Shown here: one piece after another, positions 5,096 to 36,727 of the stretch
How positions within the stretch are numbered: position 1 is the first letter of the stretch
Layout of the letters: every line of letters begins with the position of its first letter
Assembly (NCBI GenBank): GCA_009777025.1
Contig: WRMS01000001.1
Location: forward strand, 1 to 38,269
Direction of reading: 5' to 3'
Length of the DNA stretch: 38,269 bases
Source of the DNA: Clostridiales bacterium
GTDB lineage: Bacteria; Bacillota; Peptococcia; DRI-13; UBA5745
Notes under the pieces: model-generated
The model's database searches: none
What the model was told of the DNA's origin: nothing
What the model saw: the letters and a program-made list of their open reading frames with translations, nothing else
Program-made: the position numbers and the translations under genes

Positions 5096-5270
5096 GTGCT
5101 GAACGAAGATTCGTTCAAGGGACGCTAAGTCGCTATATGAAACCCACTAAAGAATCTATACATCGGGTTTTATATAGCGGTGCATCTGGATGCACCCCGC
5201 GAACGTAGGGAGCGGAGGGATGAGCGGCGTGTACGCGAATCTCGACGGGGCATGGGGCAGTGCCCCATAT
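5096..5270. repeat. hairpin array; inverted, internally deleted copy of the 34.7-34.95 kb mosaic element
   Basis: Module A gtgctgaacgaagattcgttcaa (5096-5118) is identical to 13684-13706. There is a 15-bp stem at 5131-5145/5165-5179 and a 7-bp stem at 5179-5196. ccgcgaa..gcggagggatgagcg (5197-5226) and cgcgaatctcgacgggg..atggggcagtgccccat (5234-5268) match the reverse complement of 34766-34880. Confidence 0.65.
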
Positions 5271-5597: not shown

Positions 5598-6401
5598 ATG
5601 AACAATACCGGGAAAGAAACAAAAAAACCATTGCGGCTGATTGTGATGGATCTCGACAATAGTCTTCTGCGAAGAGACAAAAGCATCTCTGCGTACACGC
5701 AGTCTATATTGGATCAATGCAGAACAAATGGTTTATGCACCGCCTTTGCCACGGCACGGTCGGAAAGCTCATCCAAGCGCTTTATAGATTGGATACAGCC
5801 GGATGCGATGATCAGCAACGGCGGCGCCCTTGTCCGCGTAGGAGACCGGATCGTCTACCGCGCGACGATGAGCAGGGAGATCACCAACCGGTTGCTGCAA
5901 GCGCTTCTTCAGACGCCGGGAATAGGCTATGTTACGGTGGATACCGACGAAGGCTATTTCGTGAATCAACTGGTTGAGGAGAGTACGCCGGGCTGGAGCG
6001 ACTATTTGCCCGCTTATCCCAGGGATTTCGCACATGGGCTGGATTGCGACGCGTATAAAGTCTCCGTGCAACTGCCGGATGAGGATGGCGCGCGGGCTAT
6101 TCTTAGCGGTTTTCCGATGATCGACGTCATCCCTTTTTATGGAGAAAACTGGTATCGCTATGCCGCAAAGGGCGCGGACAAGTGGGACGGCGTCAAGGCG
6201 TTGGCGGCCCATTTAGCGATTGACAGAGAAGCCGTTGTTGCTTTTGGCGATGATTACAGTGACCTGGAAATGATTAAGCAATGCGGCGTTGGCGTCGCCG
6301 TCGCCAATGGGATCAGCGAAGTGAAAATGGCTGCGGATGCGATCTGCGCGGACTGCGATGAAGACGGCATTGCGCATTGGATCGAGGTGCATTGTCTGTG
6401 A
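5598..6401 (+). CDS. Cof-type HAD-IIB phosphatase
   Basis: Motif I VMDLDNSLL and motif IV FGDDYSDLEM. ATG 5598 is preferred over the ORF-track GTG at 5583. Confidence 0.8.
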   Translation: MNNTGKETKKPLRLIVMDLDNSLLRRDKSISAYTQSILDQCRTNGLCTAFATARSESSSKRFIDWIQPDAMISNGGALVRVGDRIVYRATMSREITNRLLQALLQTPGIGYVTVDTDEGYFVNQLVEESTPGWSDYLPAYPRDFAHGLDCDAYKVSVQLPDEDGARAILSGFPMIDVIPFYGENWYRYAAKGADKWDGVKALAAHLAIDREAVVAFGDDYSDLEMIKQCGVGVAVANGISEVKMAADAICADCDEDGIAHWIEVHCL

Positions 6402-7246
6402 CGGGTAAAACCCCTGCGTATCCCGTCCTTCCGGATGAGAAGCCGGATATCCGTTTACTGGCGCTCGATCTGGACGACAGCCTGCTGACCGACGCGCTGG
6501 TGATTACGCCAAGAACAAAGAAAGCCATACAAGCAGCCCGGGCGCAGGGCGTAACGGTCACGCTGGCTACAGGCCGCATGTTTCAATCGGCGCTGCCTTA
6601 TGCCCGGGAACTGGAGTTAGAGGTTCCCCTCATCACCTACCAGGGCGCTTTGGTTTGTATGCCAGACGGCAGGATCATCAGCCATCAGCCCTTCGACCGG
6701 CAGCTGAGCATCGAGCTTTTAGAATTTCTGTTGCCATACGGTTACCAGGTCAATGTCTATGTAAAAGACGAGTTCTATATTGAGAAAAGCTCTCCGGAGG
6801 CGGAGGTTTACCGGGCGCGTATCCGAACCAATTTCCATGAAGTGCCCAGCTTGACAGCGATGATGGCCGGCGGCTCCGAAGGGGCGACCAAGATCGCCGT
6901 GATTGCCGGGGCAGAGCAGATACGGGAAATCACAGCCGCTATGCAGGAGCGTTTTGGGAAGAAGGCCCTTGCCGTACCCAGTAAACCGACTTTCCTGGAA
7001 ATCAACAGACCGGACACGGGGAAAGGCGTCGCATTGGCTGTGATGGCAGCCGGTTTGGGGATAGAGCGCCGGCAGGTCATGGCTATCGGAGACAGCCCCA
7101 ATGACCTGGACATGATCGAATATGCCGGTTGGGGCGTGGCTATGGCAAACGGAGAGGAAAGTGTGAAAGAAAAAGCCCGCTGGATCACGGCGTCCAATGA
7201 AGAAGAAGGCGTGGCTATTGCGATTGAGCTTTTGTTGTTATCCTAA
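6398..7246 (+). CDS. Cof-type HAD-IIB phosphatase (second paralogue)
   Basis: ALDLDDSLL and IGDSPNDLDM motifs. GTG 6398 overlaps the upstream stop (GTGA). The ORF-track TTG at 6377 is an alternative start. Confidence 0.8.
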   Translation: MTGKTPAYPVLPDEKPDIRLLALDLDDSLLTDALVITPRTKKAIQAARAQGVTVTLATGRMFQSALPYARELELEVPLITYQGALVCMPDGRIISHQPFDRQLSIELLEFLLPYGYQVNVYVKDEFYIEKSSPEAEVYRARIRTNFHEVPSLTAMMAGGSEGATKIAVIAGAEQIREITAAMQERFGKKALAVPSKPTFLEINRPDTGKGVALAVMAAGLGIERRQVMAIGDSPNDLDMIEYAGWGVAMANGEESVKEKARWITASNEEEGVAIAIELLLLS

Positions 7247-8146: not shown

Positions 8147-9102
8147 TGGGAAGGACTTCCTCCTTTTCTGCTGGCGTCAAAGGCGAACTGGCAAGGCTTT
8201 ATCCGGAGAAAGCCTGCTGCCGGCTGGCGGAATTGGCGGCAATTACGCGTTTGGACGGCACGGTTACCCTCGGACAGAATAGTAACCCAGGGCTATACAT
8301 CGCGACAGAATACTCCGCTGTGGCCAGAAAGGTATTTCGGCTGATCAAGGACTTATTCTCTGTCGAAGCGGAACTGACGGTCAAGCGACAAAACCGCCTG
8401 AAACGGCGAACCGTATACCATATCCAGGTGACCTCGCCGGAAGATACGCAGAGGCTGCTCCATTCCCTGGGGATTTTGTCCGCCAGAGGGCAGATCGTAG
8501 CAGGTATAAAAAAAGATATTATCCGGAATAAATGCTGCAGCTGTAGCTATCTGCGGGGCGCCTTTCTGGGAAGCGGCTCCGTCAGCGGGCCTGACAGCGA
8601 TTATCATTTGGAGCTGACTGCCGGAAATGAGAAATTAGGTATGGATCTGATGGAGCTGGCTAACCGCTTTCCCGGCATACAGGCGAAGATAAGCCGGCGA
8701 AAACAGACGCAGCTTGTTTACCTGAAAGAAAGCGACCAGATCGCGGATATCCTGACCTTGATGGGCGCCCATGGCAATCTGCTGGAGTTCGAAAACGCCA
8801 GGGTGCTGAAAGGCATGAAGAATCAGGTTAACCGGCTTGTGAATTGTGAGACGGCCAATCTGGAGAAAACGGTGGACGCGGCGGTCAGGCAGACGATCAA
8901 TATCAAGCTAATCGATGAGCGGATCGGCATCGACGCCCTCAATCCTTCCCTGGCGCAAGTAGCCAGGCTGCGTATGCTGAATCCCGAAGCCAATCTGAAA
9001 GAGCTGGGCGAAATTATGACGCCGCCGCTGGGTAAATCGGGGGTCAACCACCGTTTGCGGAAAATTGGGGAAATCGCCGACAAGCTCCGGGAAAAGCAGT
9101 AG
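8143..9102 (+). CDS. whiA: DNA-binding sporulation/cell-division regulator WhiA
   Basis: Degenerate LAGLIDADG-like body (FSAGVKGELARL..., YLRGAFLGSGSV) plus a C-terminal HTH (LGKSGVNHRLRKI). The ATG overlaps the rapZ stop (ATGA). Confidence 0.9.
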   Translation: MMGRTSSFSAGVKGELARLYPEKACCRLAELAAITRLDGTVTLGQNSNPGLYIATEYSAVARKVFRLIKDLFSVEAELTVKRQNRLKRRTVYHIQVTSPEDTQRLLHSLGILSARGQIVAGIKKDIIRNKCCSCSYLRGAFLGSGSVSGPDSDYHLELTAGNEKLGMDLMELANRFPGIQAKISRRKQTQLVYLKESDQIADILTLMGAHGNLLEFENARVLKGMKNQVNRLVNCETANLEKTVDAAVRQTINIKLIDERIGIDALNPSLAQVARLRMLNPEANLKELGEIMTPPLGKSGVNHRLRKIGEIADKLREKQ

Positions 9103-9180
9103 CGGCGCTGCGTTACCGCAGCGTTAGCAACTGACACTTTTGATTTCTTGTTTTAAATTGATGCCTTGAGGGTGTCAGTT
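9102..9180. repeat. mosaic-element copy (modules D + E) in a convergent intergenic gap
   Basis: gcggcgctgcgttaccgcagcgttagc (9102-9128) matches 34877-34903 apart from the loop; it forms a 7-bp stem cgctgcg/cgcagcg. tcttgttttaaattga (9146-9161) is identical to 10865-10880. A 9-bp inverted repeat aactgacac/gtgtcagtt lies at 9129-9137 and 9172-9180. Confidence 0.65.
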
Positions 9181-9196
9181 ACTATGGTGTACCCAA

Positions 9197-10795: not shown

Positions 10796-10864
10796 GGGTG
10801 AATGGCTCCTTCTACTTCGCGGTGCTGCGATCACGCGGCGATTGTGACGGACTTCCTCAAAAAA

Positions 10865-10891
10865 TCTTGTTTTAAATTGACACATCAAGTC
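10865..10891. repeat. mosaic-element module E
   Basis: tcttgttttaaattgacacatcaagtc. The first 16 nt are identical to 9146-9161. tgttttaaattgacacatcaagtc matches 34925-34948 with one mismatch. Confidence 0.7.
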
Positions 10892-10896
10892 TCATT

Positions 10897-13374: not shown

Positions 13375-13683
13375 AAAAATCTCCCCTTTCACAGGACTGT
13401 GTCGGAAAGATGTGCGCAGGATTACATAGGCAAAGCAAAAACATCCGGAGAACGGAGAAGACACCCAAAATGAATCGGGCTGCATCTGCATGTTGTGCGC
13501 CAATCCGACAAACGGGCGTGTTTAGCCCGCTCTGTATATCACATTTCATGATTCCTGTCAGATTAGCAAATTCTCATCTTCCGGTTACCTTTGCCTTTCC
13601 CAAAATAGGCTGCCGCCCATAATTAAGGCGAAGCAGCATCCCCTAAGCATATATAGTATAACTGACCCGGCTTTCATCAACAA
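13375..13683 (-). promoter_or_regulatory. candidate promoter plus roughly 270-nt leader of the ABC-F gene
   Basis: On the minus strand: TTGTTG (13683-13678), a 17-nt spacer, then TATACT (13660-13655). A long untranslated leader precedes the TTG start. It contains only short uORFs without a good RBS. Confidence 0.35.
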
Positions 13684-13706
13684 GTGCTGAACGAAGATTC
13701 GTTCAA
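13605..13706. repeat. mosaic-element copy (modules B + A)
   Basis: ataggctgccgcccataattaaggcgaagcagcatcccct (13605-13644) aligns with gtgggctgccgcccacaacccaagcgaagcggcatcccct (34711-34750). gtgctgaacgaagattcgttcaa (13684-13706) is identical to 5096-5118. Confidence 0.65.
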
Positions 13707-28044: not shown

Positions 28045-29700
28045 TCAGCGGCCCCTGTAATGCTGATAAAGCAGCAGCACATCCTGCAAATTGACCAAGC
28101 CGTCCCTGTTGACGTCGGCGGCAACCAAATCCACTCCGACTAAACTGCTTTTTCCTCGGAAATGCCTATAGAGGAGCAGCACATCCAGCATATTGATCAC
28201 GCCGTCATGGTTTAGGTCAGGAAATTCTCCGGGCTGTGTATCCGTATCTGTATCCAGGCTATACCACAATCCCATTCCGGAGCATAATGGATTTGTAGGC
28301 ATGTAGCGCTCGTCGAGGGCCGGGTCCGCTTCAAGCGAGTCGTTATCCCCGCCGATATGGGATTGCCATGCGGAAAGCCCCGCGTCCTCCAATGTGCTGT
28401 CTGGCCGGCGGTCAGAAAAAGACGCGCTTTTGCCGGCAATATAGTAACAGTTATTGTTCATCAAGGGGTTGCCATCGAGGGCGGACAAGCCGCCAAGCGC
28501 AGTGGCATAACGCACTTCCACCATCGGACGGGTGACGGATGAGGGCTGGCTAATGATATTGTGGTGAATATGCGGGTTGACGTTTGCCGGGCGGCCCGCG
28601 TAATCTTCCCAATCCTGGAACGTGATGCCGAAGTAAATGGCGCTGTGATCGGTTTCGTTCGCTACGTTCACTAAAGTATTGTTGTAAACTTGGGCATCCT
28701 TCGAGGCATATAGGCCAATACCGGAGAGACCGGTATCCATAATCAAGTTGTTTCGAACAATACCGCTGATATTCTCGTAGTATTCCGGATTGACGACTAA
28801 GTCAAAAAATTCCGGACTGGTATCAAAACCCACCAGAATGCCGGCTTCTCTTGCACGTTCGATTCGGTTGTTTTCGATTAAGACGCCGGTCGCCCCGCCT
28901 TTTGCGTAAATCGCCGTGGAACAGACATCATGGATGAAGTTGTTCTGTACCACCATAGAATCGCCGTTCACATTGTCAATGCCTTCGGCATTCCCTCCTT
29001 CAGCGCCAAAAGCGACGCCGGAATTATAAATTTCGTTATACCGGATTGTCACGTTATTGCAATTTGGTTTCACCTTGACCACATCGTAGCGGGAATCATG
29101 CAGCAGGCAGTCCTCGATGACAATATTGGACGCCCCGCTTCGATTGGATGGGTCTCCCCAATCCCATCTGGTCTCCAAGCAAACTGCATAAAAGCCGCCT
29201 ATGACTTCGACCGCTTGTAATTTACCACCGGATGAATCCACATCGAAATATACGCCGGAGTCTTCGTTGGCGCCGGCATTGTAAGTGGTCAGGTCAATCA
29301 CTGCCCATTCGCCTTTTCTGGACTTTATCGTGATATTGGGGATGCGGACACGGACATTAATTCCTTCGCGATAGACGCCGTTGCGCAGGATAATTGTATC
29401 GCCGGGCTGAGCAGCCGCCAAAGCGCTGTTGATGCTTTTATAAGGCGCGTCAATAGAACCAGTCGCTGTACTATCATTGCCGCCAGGAGAAACATAGACG
29501 CCATTTGCAGGGTCGTCATAGGTATTGCCGCGTGGACCGATATTGCCGGTTGCGAACGGCATGATCGGCGCGCTGTCGCCTTCTATTGCCGGTATATAAG
29601 CCTCCGCTGCGAAAGCCGCTGCCGGTATCGCAGCAAGCAATCCCAACACCATCATCACCGTCTGCCCTATTGCCAGTGTTTTGTATATTCCTCTTTTCAT
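28045..29700 (-). CDS. secreted right-handed beta-helix protein with a C-terminal type-I dockerin
   Basis: Signal peptide; many NN/IxDN beta-helix-type repeats; two dockerin Ca-binding segments (DLNHDGVINMLDVLLLYRHF, DVNRDGLVNLQDVLLLYQHY). ATG 29700 follows GGAGGGTGA. Confidence 0.85.
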   Translation of the reverse strand: MKRGIYKTLAIGQTVMMVLGLLAAIPAAAFAAEAYIPAIEGDSAPIMPFATGNIGPRGNTYDDPANGVYVSPGGNDSTATGSIDAPYKSINSALAAAQPGDTIILRNGVYREGINVRVRIPNITIKSRKGEWAVIDLTTYNAGANEDSGVYFDVDSSGGKLQAVEVIGGFYAVCLETRWDWGDPSNRSGASNIVIEDCLLHDSRYDVVKVKPNCNNVTIRYNEIYNSGVAFGAEGGNAEGIDNVNGDSMVVQNNFIHDVCSTAIYAKGGATGVLIENNRIERAREAGILVGFDTSPEFFDLVVNPEYYENISGIVRNNLIMDTGLSGIGLYASKDAQVYNNTLVNVANETDHSAIYFGITFQDWEDYAGRPANVNPHIHHNIISQPSSVTRPMVEVRYATALGGLSALDGNPLMNNNCYYIAGKSASFSDRRPDSTLEDAGLSAWQSHIGGDNDSLEADPALDERYMPTNPLCSGMGLWYSLDTDTDTQPGEFPDLNHDGVINMLDVLLLYRHFRGKSSLVGVDLVAADVNRDGLVNLQDVLLLYQHYRGR

Positions 29701-31986: not shown

Positions 31987-32165
31987 TTGTAGTATTCCTT
32001 TTTGAACGTATCTATAAAATTCTCCCAACCGTCAATGTCAATGAAAATCCTATTATCTTGGATGGCGACTTGCGTGTTATCTTGTGTGGCCGTACCATGC
32101 AAGTCGTAATTCATGTTATAGAAAATTACATGGAAAGCTGTCGCTGTGGAGCGGAATTTTGACAT
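31983..32165 (-). CDS. hypothetical 60-aa protein
   Basis: Fills the gap between two genes exactly: a 16-nt gap upstream and an ATGA overlap downstream, which argues for translation. No recognisable motif. Confidence 0.5.
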   Translation of the reverse strand: MSKFRSTATAFHVIFYNMNYDLHGTATQDNTQVAIQDNRIFIDIDGWENFIDTFKKEYYK

Positions 32166-32181
32166 TACTAAACATCCGGCT

Positions 32182-33726
32182 TCATTCCCCTCTCCATGAT
32201 GAATAGGATTTCTCCATCAGTTTTCTATACTTTTCATTGTTTTTATTTCGTGTGCCGAAAAATTCATCTATGCGCTTAATCGTAGGGTCATACCAATCTG
32301 CTTTCTGTTTAGCCCATTCAATCCATTGCATTTCATTTTCTGTTAAGCTAGCTTTTTTCTCCATTACTGATATATATGCTCTGATTTTACACGCGATATC
32401 GAAATCATCCGATTCATTAACAAGCGCATTGGTTTTTTCCACTTCAAGATTGTATCGATTGCGTTGGTCTTCTCTATGACGTTTTTCTTCCAAGCGCTTG
32501 AGTTCTGCGGCTTCCCGTTCTTCCCGTTGTATACGGTATTCATTTGACGCTTCATAGATAAAAATGAGTATATCTCCTAGACGTTCTTCAATGACATGGG
32601 ATTTGCTGTCACGAAGACTTTTTATATTGCCCACTGAGAAAGAGATCTTTCCATTATAAATATAGTCATATTTTCTAATGTTTGGCTGGGATGCCCATGA
32701 ATTCCTTCGTTTTTTCTCTTCATATTCTAAAAGCTGTATGTTTTCTTCCCTCGTTGGAATATGATCAATTTTATCTTTTGACTCCGAAACAGATATAGGT
32801 ACCGTTTCCCCTAGGAGAACGAATTTAAGGTCGTCTGTTAATGAACAACCTAAAGGCTCCATAGCTTTTATAAGAGCGTCAAAAATACGGCATACACGCG
32901 GTAATGAGCTTTCAGATATAGTATCTGCAAGAAATGGTGCTGTGTCTTCATTTGTTCCGAATCTTCGCTGATTTCGTTCCCGGCTTTCCTTTTTGTGCCA
33001 CTCAACTACGTTCTTCCTATGGACGATGATCTTTGCATGCATTTTGGCATTATCATCGGGCAGTCTTATTTGCATTGCTACGGAGAGTACCACAGATTTA
33101 TCCTCTACTGATAAGTAATTAAGCAATTCTTTTACAACTTGTGGCTGCGGTTCGAGATTTGTCCGTATTCCCATTTTTGAAGCAGGTTTATTGCTGTTGG
33201 GTAAGGGAGTTTGCTTTGTCGGTTTGCCTGCCTTGACTTTTGCCCAGTATCCAACGTCAGGTGTAGGAATATCCAGAGACTTACATATCTTGTGTATAGT
33301 GACATCCGAGACCATATATTGCTGTGCAACCTCAACAACCGGTTTTTCCCATACTTCTTGATATAGTTTTTCTCTGTAATATATGTTATAAATTTGTCCA
33401 TATTGCTCAATAGTTTCTACAGGATCTGCGTTTTCATCTATCGTCGGATTCTGCTGATTGTTGTCTGGCATTATGGACTCAATTGTTTTATAAATCGAAA
33501 TCATAGTGTCCGCAGGACCATCCAGCGGAATGATCTCAACGGGTTTACCAAAAGCAAGTTTTGTCCAATAACCGGTAGGTGGAATGGGGATATTGGCTGT
33601 TCTAACTTGCTTTAGTAATTGCGTATAGGGGATATCATATTCTTTTGCGACAGAAGAAGCCGACTTATCCCATATTTTTTCATAGAGTTCTTTCCGGGAA
33701 AGTGTCCCTACTAAAATGTCAACCAA
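32182..33726 (-). CDS. large uncharacterised protein: two tandem HTH-like/GYW modules plus a coiled-coil tail
   Basis: TTG 33726 lies 8 nt after AAGGAGG. The ORF-track GTG at 33771 has no RBS, and the frame stays open up to 34038 without any ATG/GTG/TTG. Internal repeats are ...LYEKIWDKS..IPIPPTGYWTKLAFGKP and ...LYQEVWEKP..IPTPDVGYWAKVKAGKP. Confidence 0.7.
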   Translation of the reverse strand: MVDILVGTLSRKELYEKIWDKSASSVAKEYDIPYTQLLKQVRTANIPIPPTGYWTKLAFGKPVEIIPLDGPADTMISIYKTIESIMPDNNQQNPTIDENADPVETIEQYGQIYNIYYREKLYQEVWEKPVVEVAQQYMVSDVTIHKICKSLDIPTPDVGYWAKVKAGKPTKQTPLPNSNKPASKMGIRTNLEPQPQVVKELLNYLSVEDKSVVLSVAMQIRLPDDNAKMHAKIIVHRKNVVEWHKKESRERNQRRFGTNEDTAPFLADTISESSLPRVCRIFDALIKAMEPLGCSLTDDLKFVLLGETVPISVSESKDKIDHIPTREENIQLLEYEEKKRRNSWASQPNIRKYDYIYNGKISFSVGNIKSLRDSKSHVIEERLGDILIFIYEASNEYRIQREEREAAELKRLEEKRHREDQRNRYNLEVEKTNALVNESDDFDIACKIRAYISVMEKKASLTENEMQWIEWAKQKADWYDPTIKRIDEFFGTRNKNNEKYRKLMEKSYSSWRGE

Positions 33727-34001
33727 TTCACCCGCCTCCTTAGCATAAGGGTCTGGCACTGCATTTGTCACTATCTTTGCGCTATTTCCGCAAGTATTAA
33801 GCAGCTTTTTCAGTAGTTTGGAAGGTGACTTTTTTCGCGATTCAGAAGAAACATTTTTCTCATTCTCATCGGTATTACCCTTTTGTTTCGGCTCAATACT
33901 ATTAGCTTCATTTTCTATCGAGGTATCCTTGTCTGATAAACCAAAAATAATATTAGATCCGGAGATTAATGTCTGAAACTGCTTTATCCCTCCTATTCCT
34001 C

Positions 34002-34319
34002 TTATTCTTTTAATAGAAAAAGCAAGTCTCGCTTCATTTCATCAAACTGTTTGATAATCATTGACAAATTATTGTCAATCGATTCAATCTGTAACTCATT
34101 GATTTTACCGTGATTGTAAGCAATAAGGCGCTCTGGAACGATGGCATAAGTCCAACTGTCTCTGTAGCGATCTTCATTATGAACGGCAAAGCCGATTGGC
34201 AGCAAATTATTTCGCATGCCAAGGGTTAGGATATTGGGAGAAATGCCGAGATAATCGGCAGCAACTTTGATCGTTATTTTCGGAAAATTACGAATTTCAT
34301 CGTCTGAATAGATTCCCAT
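34002..34319 (-). CDS. small HTH DNA-binding protein (105 aa)
   Basis: ATG 34319 lies 5 nt after AAGGAGGTGA. ITIKVAADYLGISPNILTLGMRNN reads as a helix-turn-helix. Confidence 0.7.
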   Translation of the reverse strand: MGIYSDDEIRNFPKITIKVAADYLGISPNILTLGMRNNLLPIGFAVHNEDRYRDSWTYAIVPERLIAYNHGKINELQIESIDNNLSMIIKQFDEMKRDLLFLLKE

Positions 34320-34448
34320 ACGATTCACCTCCTTTTGATAGAAAATGTGAATTGTCAAATATACACGACCTACACTTCAAACTGCCTGCCGAGCTGTATT
34401 TTATCATAATCAGAAGATATATGCGTTGGTTTCATATCGTAAACCAAA

Positions 34449-34484
34449 CAAAAAAAGGTGGCTGATATAGCCACTCGCTTTTTT
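34449..34484 (-). terminator. bidirectional intrinsic terminator (stronger on the minus strand)
   Basis: Stem gtggct/agccac (34458-34463 and 34469-34474) with a 5-nt loop. It is flanked by A8 (34449-34456) and, 4 nt after the stem, T6 (34479-34484). On the minus strand the stem runs almost directly into a U8 tract. Confidence 0.6.
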
Positions 34485-34566
34485 CATACAAAGGACTGAG
34501 GCAGGGCGACACTCCCGCATCTCCAACAAGGGTGACGGCTGCCTGTTCCGTCCTCTCAATCCCTGT
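34449..34566 (-). ncRNA. candidate roughly 115-nt sRNA or terminator-containing leader of the AT-rich operon
   Basis: On the minus strand: TTGACA (34601-34596), a 17-nt spacer, then TACAGT (34578-34573). About 115 nt with no ORF follow, containing stems gacgg/ccgtc and aggcag/ctgcct, and then the terminator above. Confidence 0.3.
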
Positions 34567-34635
34567 AGTTCAACTGTATGCTCATTTTGCTGCTATGTCA
34601 ATGGATGGAGATTTCCTTTTGCAACCATTTGTGTT

Positions 34636-34679
34636 GCCCCTATCACTACTACTAAAAACGATTTGGTAGTGATAGGGGC
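34636..34679. repeat. perfect 14-bp inverted repeat / hairpin
   Basis: gcccctatcactac (34636-34649) and gtagtgataggggc (34666-34679) separated by 16 nt. Confidence 0.8.
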
Positions 34680-34690
34680 CTTTGTAATTC

Positions 34691-36727
34691 TTGGAGCATA
34701 AACGACTAACGTGGGCTGCCGCCCACAACCCAAGCGAAGCGGCATCCCCTTGGCAGAATGCTTTGATGGGGTTAACCACCCCAAACCCCGTCGGGATTCG
34801 CGGAACATACGCGCCCATTGATACTTCGGATAGCGGATTGGGGCCGAAGGACGATGTCGCTCATCCCTTCCGCTTCGCGGCGCTGCGATTCCGCAGCGTT
34901 AGCCCCATACGGACAACGAATTCGTGTTTTAAATTAACACATCAAGTCCGTAAGGTACTACTCCGTTACTTTCGCCATACTTCCGGAACGAAAGCCAAGC
35001 TGATTGCCTGCTTACTTGTGCTGGCTGTGCTGCTTTCCGCCTGTAAGGAAAGCCCGGCGCCTGATGGAGGAAACACTTCCGGCGTCATATCGCCGAACGC
35101 GTCCGTCTCGCTGACCGGCACGGTATCTCCTTCCTCGTCTGTCTCTGACGAACGGCAAACAGAAGGATGGAATCCGGATACACGGCAGGCGGATGACAGG
35201 GCCGATCCCCGCAACGACAGAGTATCGCGAGCTGCGCTGACCGGTTCCTGGACACACTTTAGTTCCAACCAATCGACCTCGTGGGTATTTAACGAAGACG
35301 GGCGATTCGCGGGCTATCTAATCGCCCAGGCCGGCAATTATTACGATTACATGGGCTATATTTACTATCGCTCCTCATCGGCTTACAAACACCTGATGCA
35401 AGGGCGCTATGAAGTAAGCGGCGGCATTATTCGATTTTTCGACTGCCAACTTAGCACTACCATCGTTTTTGATACGGAACCCTGGCATCAGAACAATCTG
35501 AATGACGCGATGGACAACTTGCTTTTCACGCGGCTGGACGCACCTTCAAGAACGGATGATTTCACTGCGGAGTTTGAATTCATCGACGCCCGGCGCTTGC
35601 GTATCCGATTGAACCGGGGCGCGCTGGAAGAATATGATATGAATTTTAAACGAGAAACAGGCAACGCCAACGCCGATATCCCGCCACATCGTATCCCGCC
35701 GGCAGAATGGCCTGCGGTTTTCCTCTCGCCGGAAATGCCTGTGGTCGGCGACAGCAGAGGCCGAATCCGGTCTGTGTCGCAAGGTTCGGTAGAAGACCTG
35801 TCTCCCGAATACCAGTATATCTATATCAATGTAGACAGATCTTCCCAGGCGTCCATTTTGGATTATGCTGCGGAGCTAAGGAAACTGGGTTGGTCTGGGC
35901 CAAGCGAAGAGGAGATATTGATTGAGAAGCAAAAAGCCTTAGACAGCGAGCTGTCAATCGTGACAACGACGTATTCGTTTCGTTACCGTAAAGGTGTATT
36001 TGAAATCACTCTATATGTTGACGCCGAAGACGAATGGCGAATCTATTCCCATCGCGAAGCCGAAGGCTTCTGGCCATCCGAGCTATTCGGGGATGAATTC
36101 AGACCTCCGGCAAACGCTGTGTTTATAGGCGTTACGGACATGAACGCGATCCATAGGGAAGCAGAAGGCTTTTCTGCCTCGTTTGAAATCGATTTCTATC
36201 CGGGTAACCGGGAAAGTTATTTCCAAGATTTACTGTCCCGGGGCTTTGTGATCTACGACAATATGTACGGCACATTGGAGATGGCCAATCACCTGCGCAT
36301 AAACGGCAGGATGTATCAAGTCGTCATATCCCCCGGTTACTACGAAATGGCTGCCATCGGCAGCGTAACCTACCGATTGACGTATTATCCGGATATGGCC
36401 TGGTCGGACGAGTTCCCCTCGGAAACTGCCCCGCCGCCCGGTTATGAATTGTTCTGGGATTACTACGATCTCAACAGAGGCGTCGGCGTGATGAATGCCG
36501 AAGGAGACAGGGGCAATTTGAAATACTCTGTCATCGGCTTGACCCAGGCAGATCTCGATAATTATTACAACAATCTGGAACAAATGGGCTGGAGTACGAG
36601 CTGGATGGGCGACGGAAAGTCCAAGCCATTCAACTGGAATGGGGGCGAATGGTGGTTCCAGATCAGGCTTTACAGATATAGTCTCAACCTCTATACTTTT
36701 GAACTGGACTTCTGGAAAACTAATTAA
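34691..36727 (+). CDS. hypothetical lipoprotein (5' end unresolved)
   Basis: A 678-codon open frame. A credible signal peptide and lipobox (KAKLIACLLVLAVLLSAC) begins only near 34995-35044. There is no ATG/GTG/TTG between 34766 and 35018, and the upstream part of the frame runs through the repeat element. The coordinates given are the maximal ORF. Confidence 0.65.
   Translation: MEHKRLTWAAAHNPSEAASPWQNALMGLTTPNPVGIRGTYAPIDTSDSGLGPKDDVAHPFRFAALRFRSVSPIRTTNSCFKLTHQVRKVLLRYFRHTSGTKAKLIACLLVLAVLLSACKESPAPDGGNTSGVISPNASVSLTGTVSPSSSVSDERQTEGWNPDTRQADDRADPRNDRVSRAALTGSWTHFSSNQSTSWVFNEDGRFAGYLIAQAGNYYDYMGYIYYRSSSAYKHLMQGRYEVSGGIIRFFDCQLSTTIVFDTEPWHQNNLNDAMDNLLFTRLDAPSRTDDFTAEFEFIDARRLRIRLNRGALEEYDMNFKRETGNANADIPPHRIPPAEWPAVFLSPEMPVVGDSRGRIRSVSQGSVEDLSPEYQYIYINVDRSSQASILDYAAELRKLGWSGPSEEEILIEKQKALDSELSIVTTTYSFRYRKGVFEITLYVDAEDEWRIYSHREAEGFWPSELFGDEFRPPANAVFIGVTDMNAIHREAEGFSASFEIDFYPGNRESYFQDLLSRGFVIYDNMYGTLEMANHLRINGRMYQVVISPGYYEMAAIGSVTYRLTYYPDMAWSDEFPSETAPPPGYELFWDYYDLNRGVGVMNAEGDRGNLKYSVIGLTQADLDNYYNNLEQMGWSTSWMGDGKSKPFNWNGGEWWFQIRLYRYSLNLYTFELDFWKTN
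34711..34948. repeat. most complete copy of the mosaic intergenic element (modules B, G, C, D, A', E)
   Basis: B 34711-34750; G/C 34766-34880; D 34877-34903; A' 34914-34926; E 34925-34948. Each has a counterpart at 13605-13644, 5197-5268 (inverted), 9102-9128, 5096-5118/13684-13706, or 9146-9161/10865-10891. A long-range 9-bp complement gcgaagcgg (34735-34743) / ccgcttcgc (34870-34878) brackets G/C. Confidence 0.65.

Follow-up and report, generated by a model that had tools for sequence, protein, structure and literature searches.

The BOX elements of Streptococcus pneumoniae are modular boxA-boxB(n)-boxC intergenic repeats, and the ERIC/IRU elements of enterobacteria are imperfect palindromes of about 127 bp, with larger forms produced via internal insertions. 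The non-autonomous elements derived from IS200/IS605 (PATEs), and likewise the REP/BIME elements, are mobilised by Y1 (HUH) transposases. Among structured RNAs, the members of the skipping-rope family are highly conserved, typically have a Rho-independent terminator on their 3' side, occur rarely in 5' untranslated regions (5' UTRs), are not self-cleaving, and are associated with a nearby-encoded protein (Weinberg et al. 2017, PMC5737381). In the present study we analyse a 601-nucleotide (nt) gap, 34360-34960, in a stretch of 38,269 nt from the genome of an uncultured Clostridiales bacterium (contig WRMS01000001.1; this whole stretch is hereafter the window, and all coordinates refer to it), and show how it compares with these systems.

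The gap lies between an AT-rich two-gene cassette and a lipoprotein-like gene. An initial annotation had described it as gene-free and rich in hairpins, had matched it to no known RNA family, and had offered as explanations a structured RNA, a cis-regulatory leader of the adjacent operon, or the scar or terminus of a mobile element. We read the gap, with a probability of roughly 0.8, as a composite of independent elements and not as one structure: a small RNA (sRNA) gene belonging to the skipping-rope family, a 14-bp inverted repeat without mismatches, and a copy of a dispersed repeat. Both the sRNA gene and the dispersed repeat are identified with good support, the former from family membership and from promoter and terminator motifs, the latter from its multi-copy, sharply bounded and modular nature; what we propose on the mechanisms of both is inferred.

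The claims that the gap is gene-free and that it holds no known RNA family do not survive a comparison with Rfam. A cmscan search of the whole window, a check that had been suggested along with those claims, recovered a single match above the gathering threshold, to the skipping-rope model (RF02924) on the minus strand at 34493-34562, and nothing on the repeat. The match scores 53.8 bits against a gathering threshold of 36.7 (E = 3e-10 for the whole window) and extends over model positions 1-80 of 80, with every upper-case consensus position present and no non-canonical pairs flagged. The RNA consists of an outer 8-bp helix (GGAUUGAG/CUCAGUCC) around two hairpins with conserved loops, joined by GAGG and GAGAUG junctions, and its minimum-free-energy fold recovers the outer helix and both hairpins. 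A structured RNA is thus present, as had been supposed, but it belongs to a known family and includes none of the hairpins on which the supposition was based. At E ≤ 10 the only other Rfam family in 34000-35300 was a chance-level Tymo tRNA-like match, and the window has no tRNA or tmRNA.

The promoter and the bidirectional terminator noted earlier were both recovered, and they flank this RNA. The former is a sigma-70-type promoter on the minus strand (34573-34601), with TTGACA (34601-34596) and TACAGT (34578-34573) separated by a 17-nt spacer; it matches the consensus at 10/12 positions in a motif scan and no other strong sigma-70-like promoter occurs in the gap. Its end lies about 10 nt ahead of model position 1, which places the predicted transcription start within a few bases of that position. 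The latter, detected by a terminator scan, is an intrinsic terminator acting on both strands (34450-34484), with a stem GGTGGCT/AGCCAC(T) at 34457-34475 bordered by A7 on the left (34450-34456) and T6 on the right (34479-34484); on the minus strand its hairpin (34474-34458) and U7 tract begin 18 nt past the skipping-rope motif. As these two signals bracket the RNA, the whole has the form of a stand-alone sRNA unit of about 115 nt. A minus-strand RNA of this length would be made from its own sigma-70 promoter and end at a strong intrinsic terminator, and would comprise the outer helix enclosing the two conserved hairpins, followed by the terminator hairpin. The unit resembles other members of the family in its full-length model match, its conserved junction and loop nucleotides and its 3' intrinsic terminator, and a promoter-like motif lies upstream of 61 of the 121 family members examined.

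The order of parts on the minus strand (promoter, structured RNA, intrinsic terminator, 128 nt, ribosome-binding site, gene) is also that of a riboswitch-type leader, and the RNA might accordingly be viewed as a cis-acting leader or attenuator that gates read-through into the two genes of the cassette, which encode proteins of 105 and 529 residues; in some viral loci, too, an integrase gene begins 29-140 nt past the RNA on the same strand. We regard this as improbable. The skipping-rope RNA is missing from eight other loci that carry this cassette, the RNA on the Bacillus plasmid pTA1060 is convergent with its neighbouring gene, and a separate extended -10 motif (TGATAAAAT, 34406-34398) is situated between the terminator and the first gene of the cassette. 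Nor does the family as a whole show a consistent placement in 5' UTRs, where it is rarely found (Weinberg et al. 2017, PMC5737381).

Relatives of this RNA occur in viruses and plasmids. A BLAST search of the 601 nt against known phages and plasmids matched only the RNA part, about 65 nt, in the Bacillus phages BSP14, BSP36, BSP38 and P59, in Dulem virus 33 and in small rolling-circle Bacillus plasmids, with identities of 82-96% across the Bacillus phages, Dulem virus 33 and pTA1060 (96% over 53 nt for Dulem virus 33, 88% for pTA1060). A survey with a pattern derived from the family consensus identified at least 120 viral contigs with a skipping-rope RNA (L002-L121), in which its placement is stereotyped: it follows a PBECR nuclease gene or another toxin-like or abortive-infection-like gene. 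In 49 of the 120 viral loci the RNA is preceded, at a distance of 36-77 nt and on its own strand, by the end of a gene for a PBECR-family nuclease (Pfam PBECR3/PBECR2); the other upstream genes include a 159-residue family that appears ToxN-like by eye, an Abi_2-like gene, also recognised by eye, and SocA/Panacea (Pfam). On the downstream side, an integrase gene starts within 1.5 kb in 28 of 94 viral loci, versus 2 of 75 on the upstream side. PBECR domains are predicted phage RNases (PMC5512222).

On pTA1060 the RNA (6260→6191) is convergent with a PBECR2 gene (5763-6161). A candidate function as the single-strand origin (sso) of rolling-circle plasmids was rejected, as the sso of pTA1060 has been mapped to 6349-6549 (PMC4595007), outside the RNA at 6191-6260. 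A separate observation is that the Bacillus-plasmid RNA motif (RF01691) occupies 6354-6409 of the pTA1060 record (L281); as it falls within the experimentally mapped sso, it is probably the origin itself.

Given the phage and plasmid relatives adjoining PBECR-type RNase genes and integrases, we tentatively suggest that the skipping-rope RNA acts in trans or partners proteins of mobile elements, most likely PBECR RNases, and that the present copy is an orphan that a decayed mobile element left behind along with the AT-rich cassette, a proposal for which we would give distinctly less than even odds. The window differs from the family at large in that its RNA lies in ordinary chromosome, beside genes for a helix-turn-helix (HTH)-like and a 529-residue protein, without a nearby PBECR or integrase gene. 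No PBECR-like sequence was found in any frame of the window; PBECR is a frequent neighbour and not a requirement of the Rfam family. Six-frame searches upstream of the RNA for a remnant PBECR, ToxN-like, Abi_2 or SocA gene gave no match.

The cassette itself (32182-34319, minus strand) has conserved homologues. Its first gene encodes a 105-residue HTH-like protein (phrog_6058), and in its upstream region (34317-34406, minus strand), as we read it, a ribosome-binding site GGAGG (34332-34328) precedes an ATG at 34319-34317; a start at GTG 34328 would give 108 residues, a gene call that exists only on a sister contig (L001) that is 99.8% identical to the window. The extended -10 motif mentioned above, a candidate promoter of this gene, was read by us and missed by the promoter scan. 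The 529-residue product of the second gene contains two HTH-like repeats of the form 'LYxxVWxxP…IPxPxxGYWxK' and a long coiled coil; no relative was found in Pfam, PADLOC, NCBIfam or the PDB sequences, nor by Foldseek with an AlphaFold model (predicted local distance difference test, pLDDT, of 77). More than 770 homologues of this large protein were recovered. They have 540-610 residues and variable N-termini, and the predicted start of the 529-residue form is therefore uncertain; its frame is open for about 220 nt upstream of the first GTG (33771-33990), back to an RBS-like (ribosome-binding-site-like) AGGAGGG followed by ATA.

The three proteins encoded downstream of the RNA in the window (the two of the cassette and a metallophosphoesterase) occur in none of the 120 viral skipping-rope loci (0/120), and the RNA occurs in none of the eight other cassette loci (0/8). 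A partnership of the RNA with any of these three genes was rejected on these counts, and the adjacency of RNA and cassette is therefore specific to this organism and the sister contig.

The same surroundings admit an account in which an integrated phage or integrative element has decayed and the gap marks its end: the RNA, the inverted repeat and the AT-rich cassette would remain after loss of the integrase, the dispersed repeat having been inserted later at the junction. The RNA stands just upstream of an integrase gene in the 28 of 94 viral loci noted above; the cassette elsewhere is often found directly after serine recombinases and beside tRNA, toxin-antitoxin or defence genes, with homologues directly after serine recombinases and by a tRNA gene in loci L265-L267, L272 and L273; and the guanine-plus-cytosine (GC) content is 34-42% over 32000-34400, versus about 52% in the flanks. 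Set against this, no integrase was found in the window, no phage genes, and no att-like direct repeats around the AT-rich island. We consider such an origin a possibility, if clearly the less probable side of the question, and it is compatible with the composite reading rather than opposed to it.

The remainder of the gap is dominated by the dispersed repeat. The density of hairpins reported earlier is real: the folding energy of the 601 nt is -199 kcal/mol, whereas dinucleotide shuffles give -168 ± 6.4 (z = -4.8). The segment 34706-34960, located between the RNA and lipoprotein-like genes, has a strong fold on either strand (z = -3.8 for plus, z = -4.0 for minus), and all the GC hairpins that had drawn attention, along with the 9-bp long-range pairing, fall within it. 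This segment is a complete, long-form copy of the repeat, 255 nt on the plus strand, from CTAA to TACTA.

The repeat came to light through the sister contig, which departs from the window at 34802 and continues like window positions 9102-9155; this divergence exposed the repeat, within which the contig ends. As an observation on that contig, its positions 1-80 hold a short-form repeat, with another variant of the right-hand hairpin, at the site of the window's long form. A scan of genomes with 17-mers was unspecific, most of the 116 matches being due to chance in high-GC genomes; only two were real, L172 and L183, which are two contigs of the termite-gut Clostridiales metagenome-assembled genome (MAG) Th196P4bin44. 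A more specific scan of metagenomes gave 26 loci, of which about 19 are real. Many of these come from JGI24702J35022, the same source as the MAG, and the rest from Ga0099364 and Ga0082212, and these approximately 19 contigs match the window in the repeat alone, at 92-98% identity over up to 183 nt. In an alignment of 17 copies (A1) the similarity begins sharply at CTAA (34706) and stops at TACTA (34960), with unrelated flanks. In viral contigs the repeat gave one chance match only.

Each complete copy is built of five hairpin modules, M1-M5, in a fixed order, with long and short forms and a total length of 205-255 nt. M1 (34713-34748), the left hairpin detected by an inverted-repeat search, has the stem GGCTGCCGC/GCGGCAtCC and a largely conserved loop; gtgggc-tgcc-gcccac, reported previously and found at 34711-34726, is an alternative local fold inside it. 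In other copies the stem reads GCTGCGC/GCGCAGC, GCTTCGC/GCGAAGC or GCTACGCCT/AGGCGTAGC by per-copy folds and, by eye, GCTTCGCT/AGCGAAGC in L246, so that five stem sequences are seen overall, each still complementary. M2 (34767-34783) is the hairpin TGGGGT-taacc-ACCCCA (ATGGGG-loop-CCCCAT) in per-copy folds, with a GGG/CCC core invariant in 16-17 of the 17 copies; the inner ggggt-taacc-acccc noted before lies at 34768-34782, one base from where it had been placed. M3 (34786-34880) has a conserved core CCCCGTCGGGATTCGCG…ATGTCGCTCATCCCTTCCGCTTCGCG (or CCCCGTCGGGATTCGCG…ATGTCGCTCATCCC) that itself forms a hairpin, GGGAT-tc-GCG/CGC-tc-ATCCC. M4 (34880-34899) is GCGCTGCG-attc-CGCAGCG(T), containing the previously reported cgctgcg-attc-cgcagcg (34881-34898); 92% of cells are paired across copies, and by eye the stem is kept in L172 with a C:G to T:A exchange. 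M5 (34900-34960), the right hairpin, likewise found by the inverted-repeat search, has arms at 34900-34914 and 34946-34960, a conserved loop gTTTTAAATT(G/A)ACA and the element end TACTA; its stem occurs as CCTTACGGAC/GTCCGTAAGG and ACTGACAC/GTGTCAGT, between which both partners differ in 4 of 14 pairs, and 90% of cells are paired. An optional piece of about 50 nt (34803-34852) is located in the apical loop of M3 in the long forms, in the loop of M1 in L240 and in both in L251; the short form without 34803-34852 is seen in L001, L240, L248, L253, L254, L257, L261 and the window fragment 5211-5257.

These findings bear on the principal suggestion of the initial annotation, that a single large structured RNA with nested pairings, or the leader of a foreign operon, fills the whole gap. 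The many nested hairpins, the overall z of -4.8 and the 9-bp pairing, which exists with a shift of one base (34734-34742 with 34870-34878), speak for it. The long-range pairing and the GC hairpins, however, lie inside a single copy of a repeat that is also found where the operon is absent; just one M1 variant has the 5' partner of the 9-bp pairing; and the phylogenetic distributions of the parts are disjoint. The RNA is found in phages and plasmids without the repeat, and the repeat in termite-gut-type metagenomes without the RNA, so that a single nested RNA is unsupported by their separate distributions, just as the cassette loci devoid of the RNA tell against a leader. We hold that reading to be very improbable indeed. 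The third suggestion, of a mobile element, fares better in part: the GC hairpins and the 9-bp pairing do belong to a dispersed repeat, which is a complete small non-autonomous element and not the scar of the AT-rich operon.

It is well supported that 34706-34960 is a copy of a non-autonomous, modular, five-hairpin repeat family, previously undescribed, that has multiplied in this uncultured lineage of Clostridia. With many copies, sharp common boundaries, a short length and no open reading frame (ORF), it conforms to dispersed non-autonomous repeats in the broad sense of miniature inverted-repeat transposable elements (MITEs), REP and BOX. Inverted repeats are lacking at its termini, as a comparison of the left end (CTAAGATGAGC…) with the right end (…AAGGTACTA) shows, which tells against a classical DDE-derived MITE. 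Instead, the basal pairs of the M1 and M5 hairpins take in the termini, and both ends follow CTA; this trinucleotide is present at both boundaries of every complete copy, so that a target-site duplication would look no different from element sequence or a fixed target.

In architecture its closest analogues appear to be BOX and ERIC. Like BOX, it is short, non-coding and intergenic, with ordered modules, an optional internal module, strong folding, many copies and no transposase of its own; it differs in its host lineage, with no sequence similarity expected, and in having ends that are not mutual inverted repeats and both follow CTA. It shares with ERIC/IRU the intergenic location and the existence of long and short forms, set apart by a discrete insertion inside the element at fixed sites, whereas ERIC is a single long imperfect palindrome and the present repeat a series of five separate hairpins. 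The comparison with PATEs and REP/BIME concerns the ends: common to both are the absence of terminal inverted repeats, the subterminal hairpins (here M1 and M5) whose stems vary yet remain paired, and a short CTA that directly precedes the left end and also stands at the right end; the window's repeat differs in having no nearby TnpA, RAYT or TnpB and in carrying three extra internal hairpins, which the minimal ends of those elements lack. In the flanks examined, no transposase or other recurrent gene was found beside the repeat copies, and no TnpA, RAYT or TnpB near any copy. Given the lack of terminal inverted repeats, the pairing of the ends at the foot of subterminal hairpins and a CTA ahead of either presumed cleavage point, the repeat has probably spread by means of a trans-acting transposase able to recognise single-stranded DNA hairpins, in the manner of IS200/IS605 or REP elements. 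At the present site it would probably exert only side effects on its neighbours, as an insulator, terminator or outward promoter.

An alternative view of the 255-nt repeat is that its copies are chiefly functional structured RNAs or a single-stranded DNA signal and not selfish mobile DNA, for instance guide-RNA-like scaffolds left by IS200/IS605-TnpB elements or a dispersed regulatory RNA. The strong fold on both strands (z about -4), the M1 and M5 stems that vary between copies yet stay complementary, and the restriction of the optional 50-nt piece to apical loops, as structured RNAs tolerate, would all accord with this. However, an equal fold on both strands is also what is expected of DNA palindromes; no Rfam family matched the window copy at E ≤ 10, or four other copies (L240, L241, L248 and L263) at the gathering threshold; modules occur alone or truncated, at 9102-9184, 13608-13644 and in L284; and the copies have no consistent orientation with respect to neighbouring genes and no tnpB or partner gene nearby. 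We therefore judge a primarily functional role unlikely; like the leader and the single-RNA readings, it is weaker than the composite reading.

Several points weigh against the composite reading and its parts. The expression and ends of the RNA are only predicted from sequence, its usual neighbours (the PBECR nuclease and the integrase) are missing at this locus, and in the searchable literature no functional paper on skipping-rope RNAs after 2017 was found. The mobility of the repeat is inferred from its distribution, with no empty site, target-site duplication or cognate transposase shown. The covariation in M1 and M5 is drawn from few independent lineages, and its shuffle control is marginal, with 5 to 15 of 500 shuffles reaching the observed value; RNAalifold found little on the gappy repeat alignment and was uninformative. 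Finally, the divergent last 80 nt of the sister contig may reflect recombination between copies or an assembly chimera at the repeat.

Partial copies of the repeat occur elsewhere in the window. One at 9102-9184 comprises M4 and M5, is 100% identical to L240 and shares its first base with the end of the whiA stop codon (9100-9102); a second, at 10808-10895, is a degenerate M4+M5 upstream of a Big_2/CAP gene; M1 stands alone at 13608-13644; and M2 with M3 in the short form lies on the reverse strand at 5211-5257. Apart from these, an exact 23-nt repeat (ctgaacgaagattcgttca…) is found at 5096-5118 and 13684-13706, both intergenic, and a piece related to it adjoins repeat copies in L172 and L250, which points to more modules of a mosaic repeat set.

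The earlier view that no credible protein ORF exists in the gap stands, because the ORFs cross a repeat whose long and short forms differ by about 50 nt, not a multiple of three. This applies to the minus-strand ORFs of 71 and 78 residues, and the 5' part of a plus-strand ORF of 678 residues crosses the repeat as well. A gene call of 653 residues (P0121) that starts at ATG 34766, inside the repeat, is an artefact. The lipoprotein-like gene itself, as read from the sequence, has its start region at 34961-35044 on the plus strand and extends to 36727; no ATG, GTG or TTG precedes its signal peptide, (T)KAKLIACLLVLAVLLSAC, and an ACG (34988) occupies the expected start position, 28 nt past the right end of the repeat. 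In another metagenome, positions 489-545 of locus L284 hold an M1-like module about 60 nt upstream of the ATG of a homologue of this lipoprotein-like protein with 55% identity; a related organism thus also has repeat fragments at this gene. Within M5, a -35-like TTAACA (34934-34939) is followed after 16 nt by TACTA|C, a possible outward promoter judging from the motif; as a promoter driving the neighbours it was rejected, the orientation of downstream genes being inconsistent.

The third element of the gap, the perfect 14-bp inverted repeat GCCCCTATCACTAC-N16-GTAGTGATAGGGGC (34636-34679), is as first described, with arms at 34636-34649 and 34666-34679. It sits 35 nt upstream of the -35 box of the RNA, is also present in the sister contig, and has no match in the viral contigs or the repeat-bearing metagenome loci. 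It may be a protein-binding site or a weak plus-strand terminator.

For annotation, one curated RNA family and one repeat family between them account for the oddly structured gap; a further copy of a known RNA family next to a repeat family that is new but of a familiar kind will not surprise a specialist. The link, in viral contigs, to a PBECR gene upstream and an integrase downstream offers a testable lead on the function of skipping-rope RNAs, be it as a nuclease partner or as an antidote. Compact and well bounded, the repeat could be used to mark this uncultured lineage and to study one case of mobile DNA based on hairpins in Clostridia. A bolder notion, which we regard as unlikely, is that the orphan RNA has been kept as a decoy or antidote against PBECR RNases, and/or that the repeat represents a new class of structured nucleic acid. 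Were this so, an orphan skipping-rope RNA would be an immunity RNA akin to type III antitoxins but without a toxin, directed against phage- or plasmid-borne PBECR-type RNases, and the covarying stems and loop-restricted insertions of the repeat would reflect a function, as an RNA scaffold or a single-stranded DNA signal.

The wider setting is that of an ordinary chromosome, with pgk, an aldehyde ferredoxin oxidoreductase gene, rapZ, whiA, uvrC and metG in the window. On the minus strand at 28045-29700 it also encodes a beta-helix protein bearing a type I dockerin domain, a sign that the organism may be related to cellulosome-type Clostridium.

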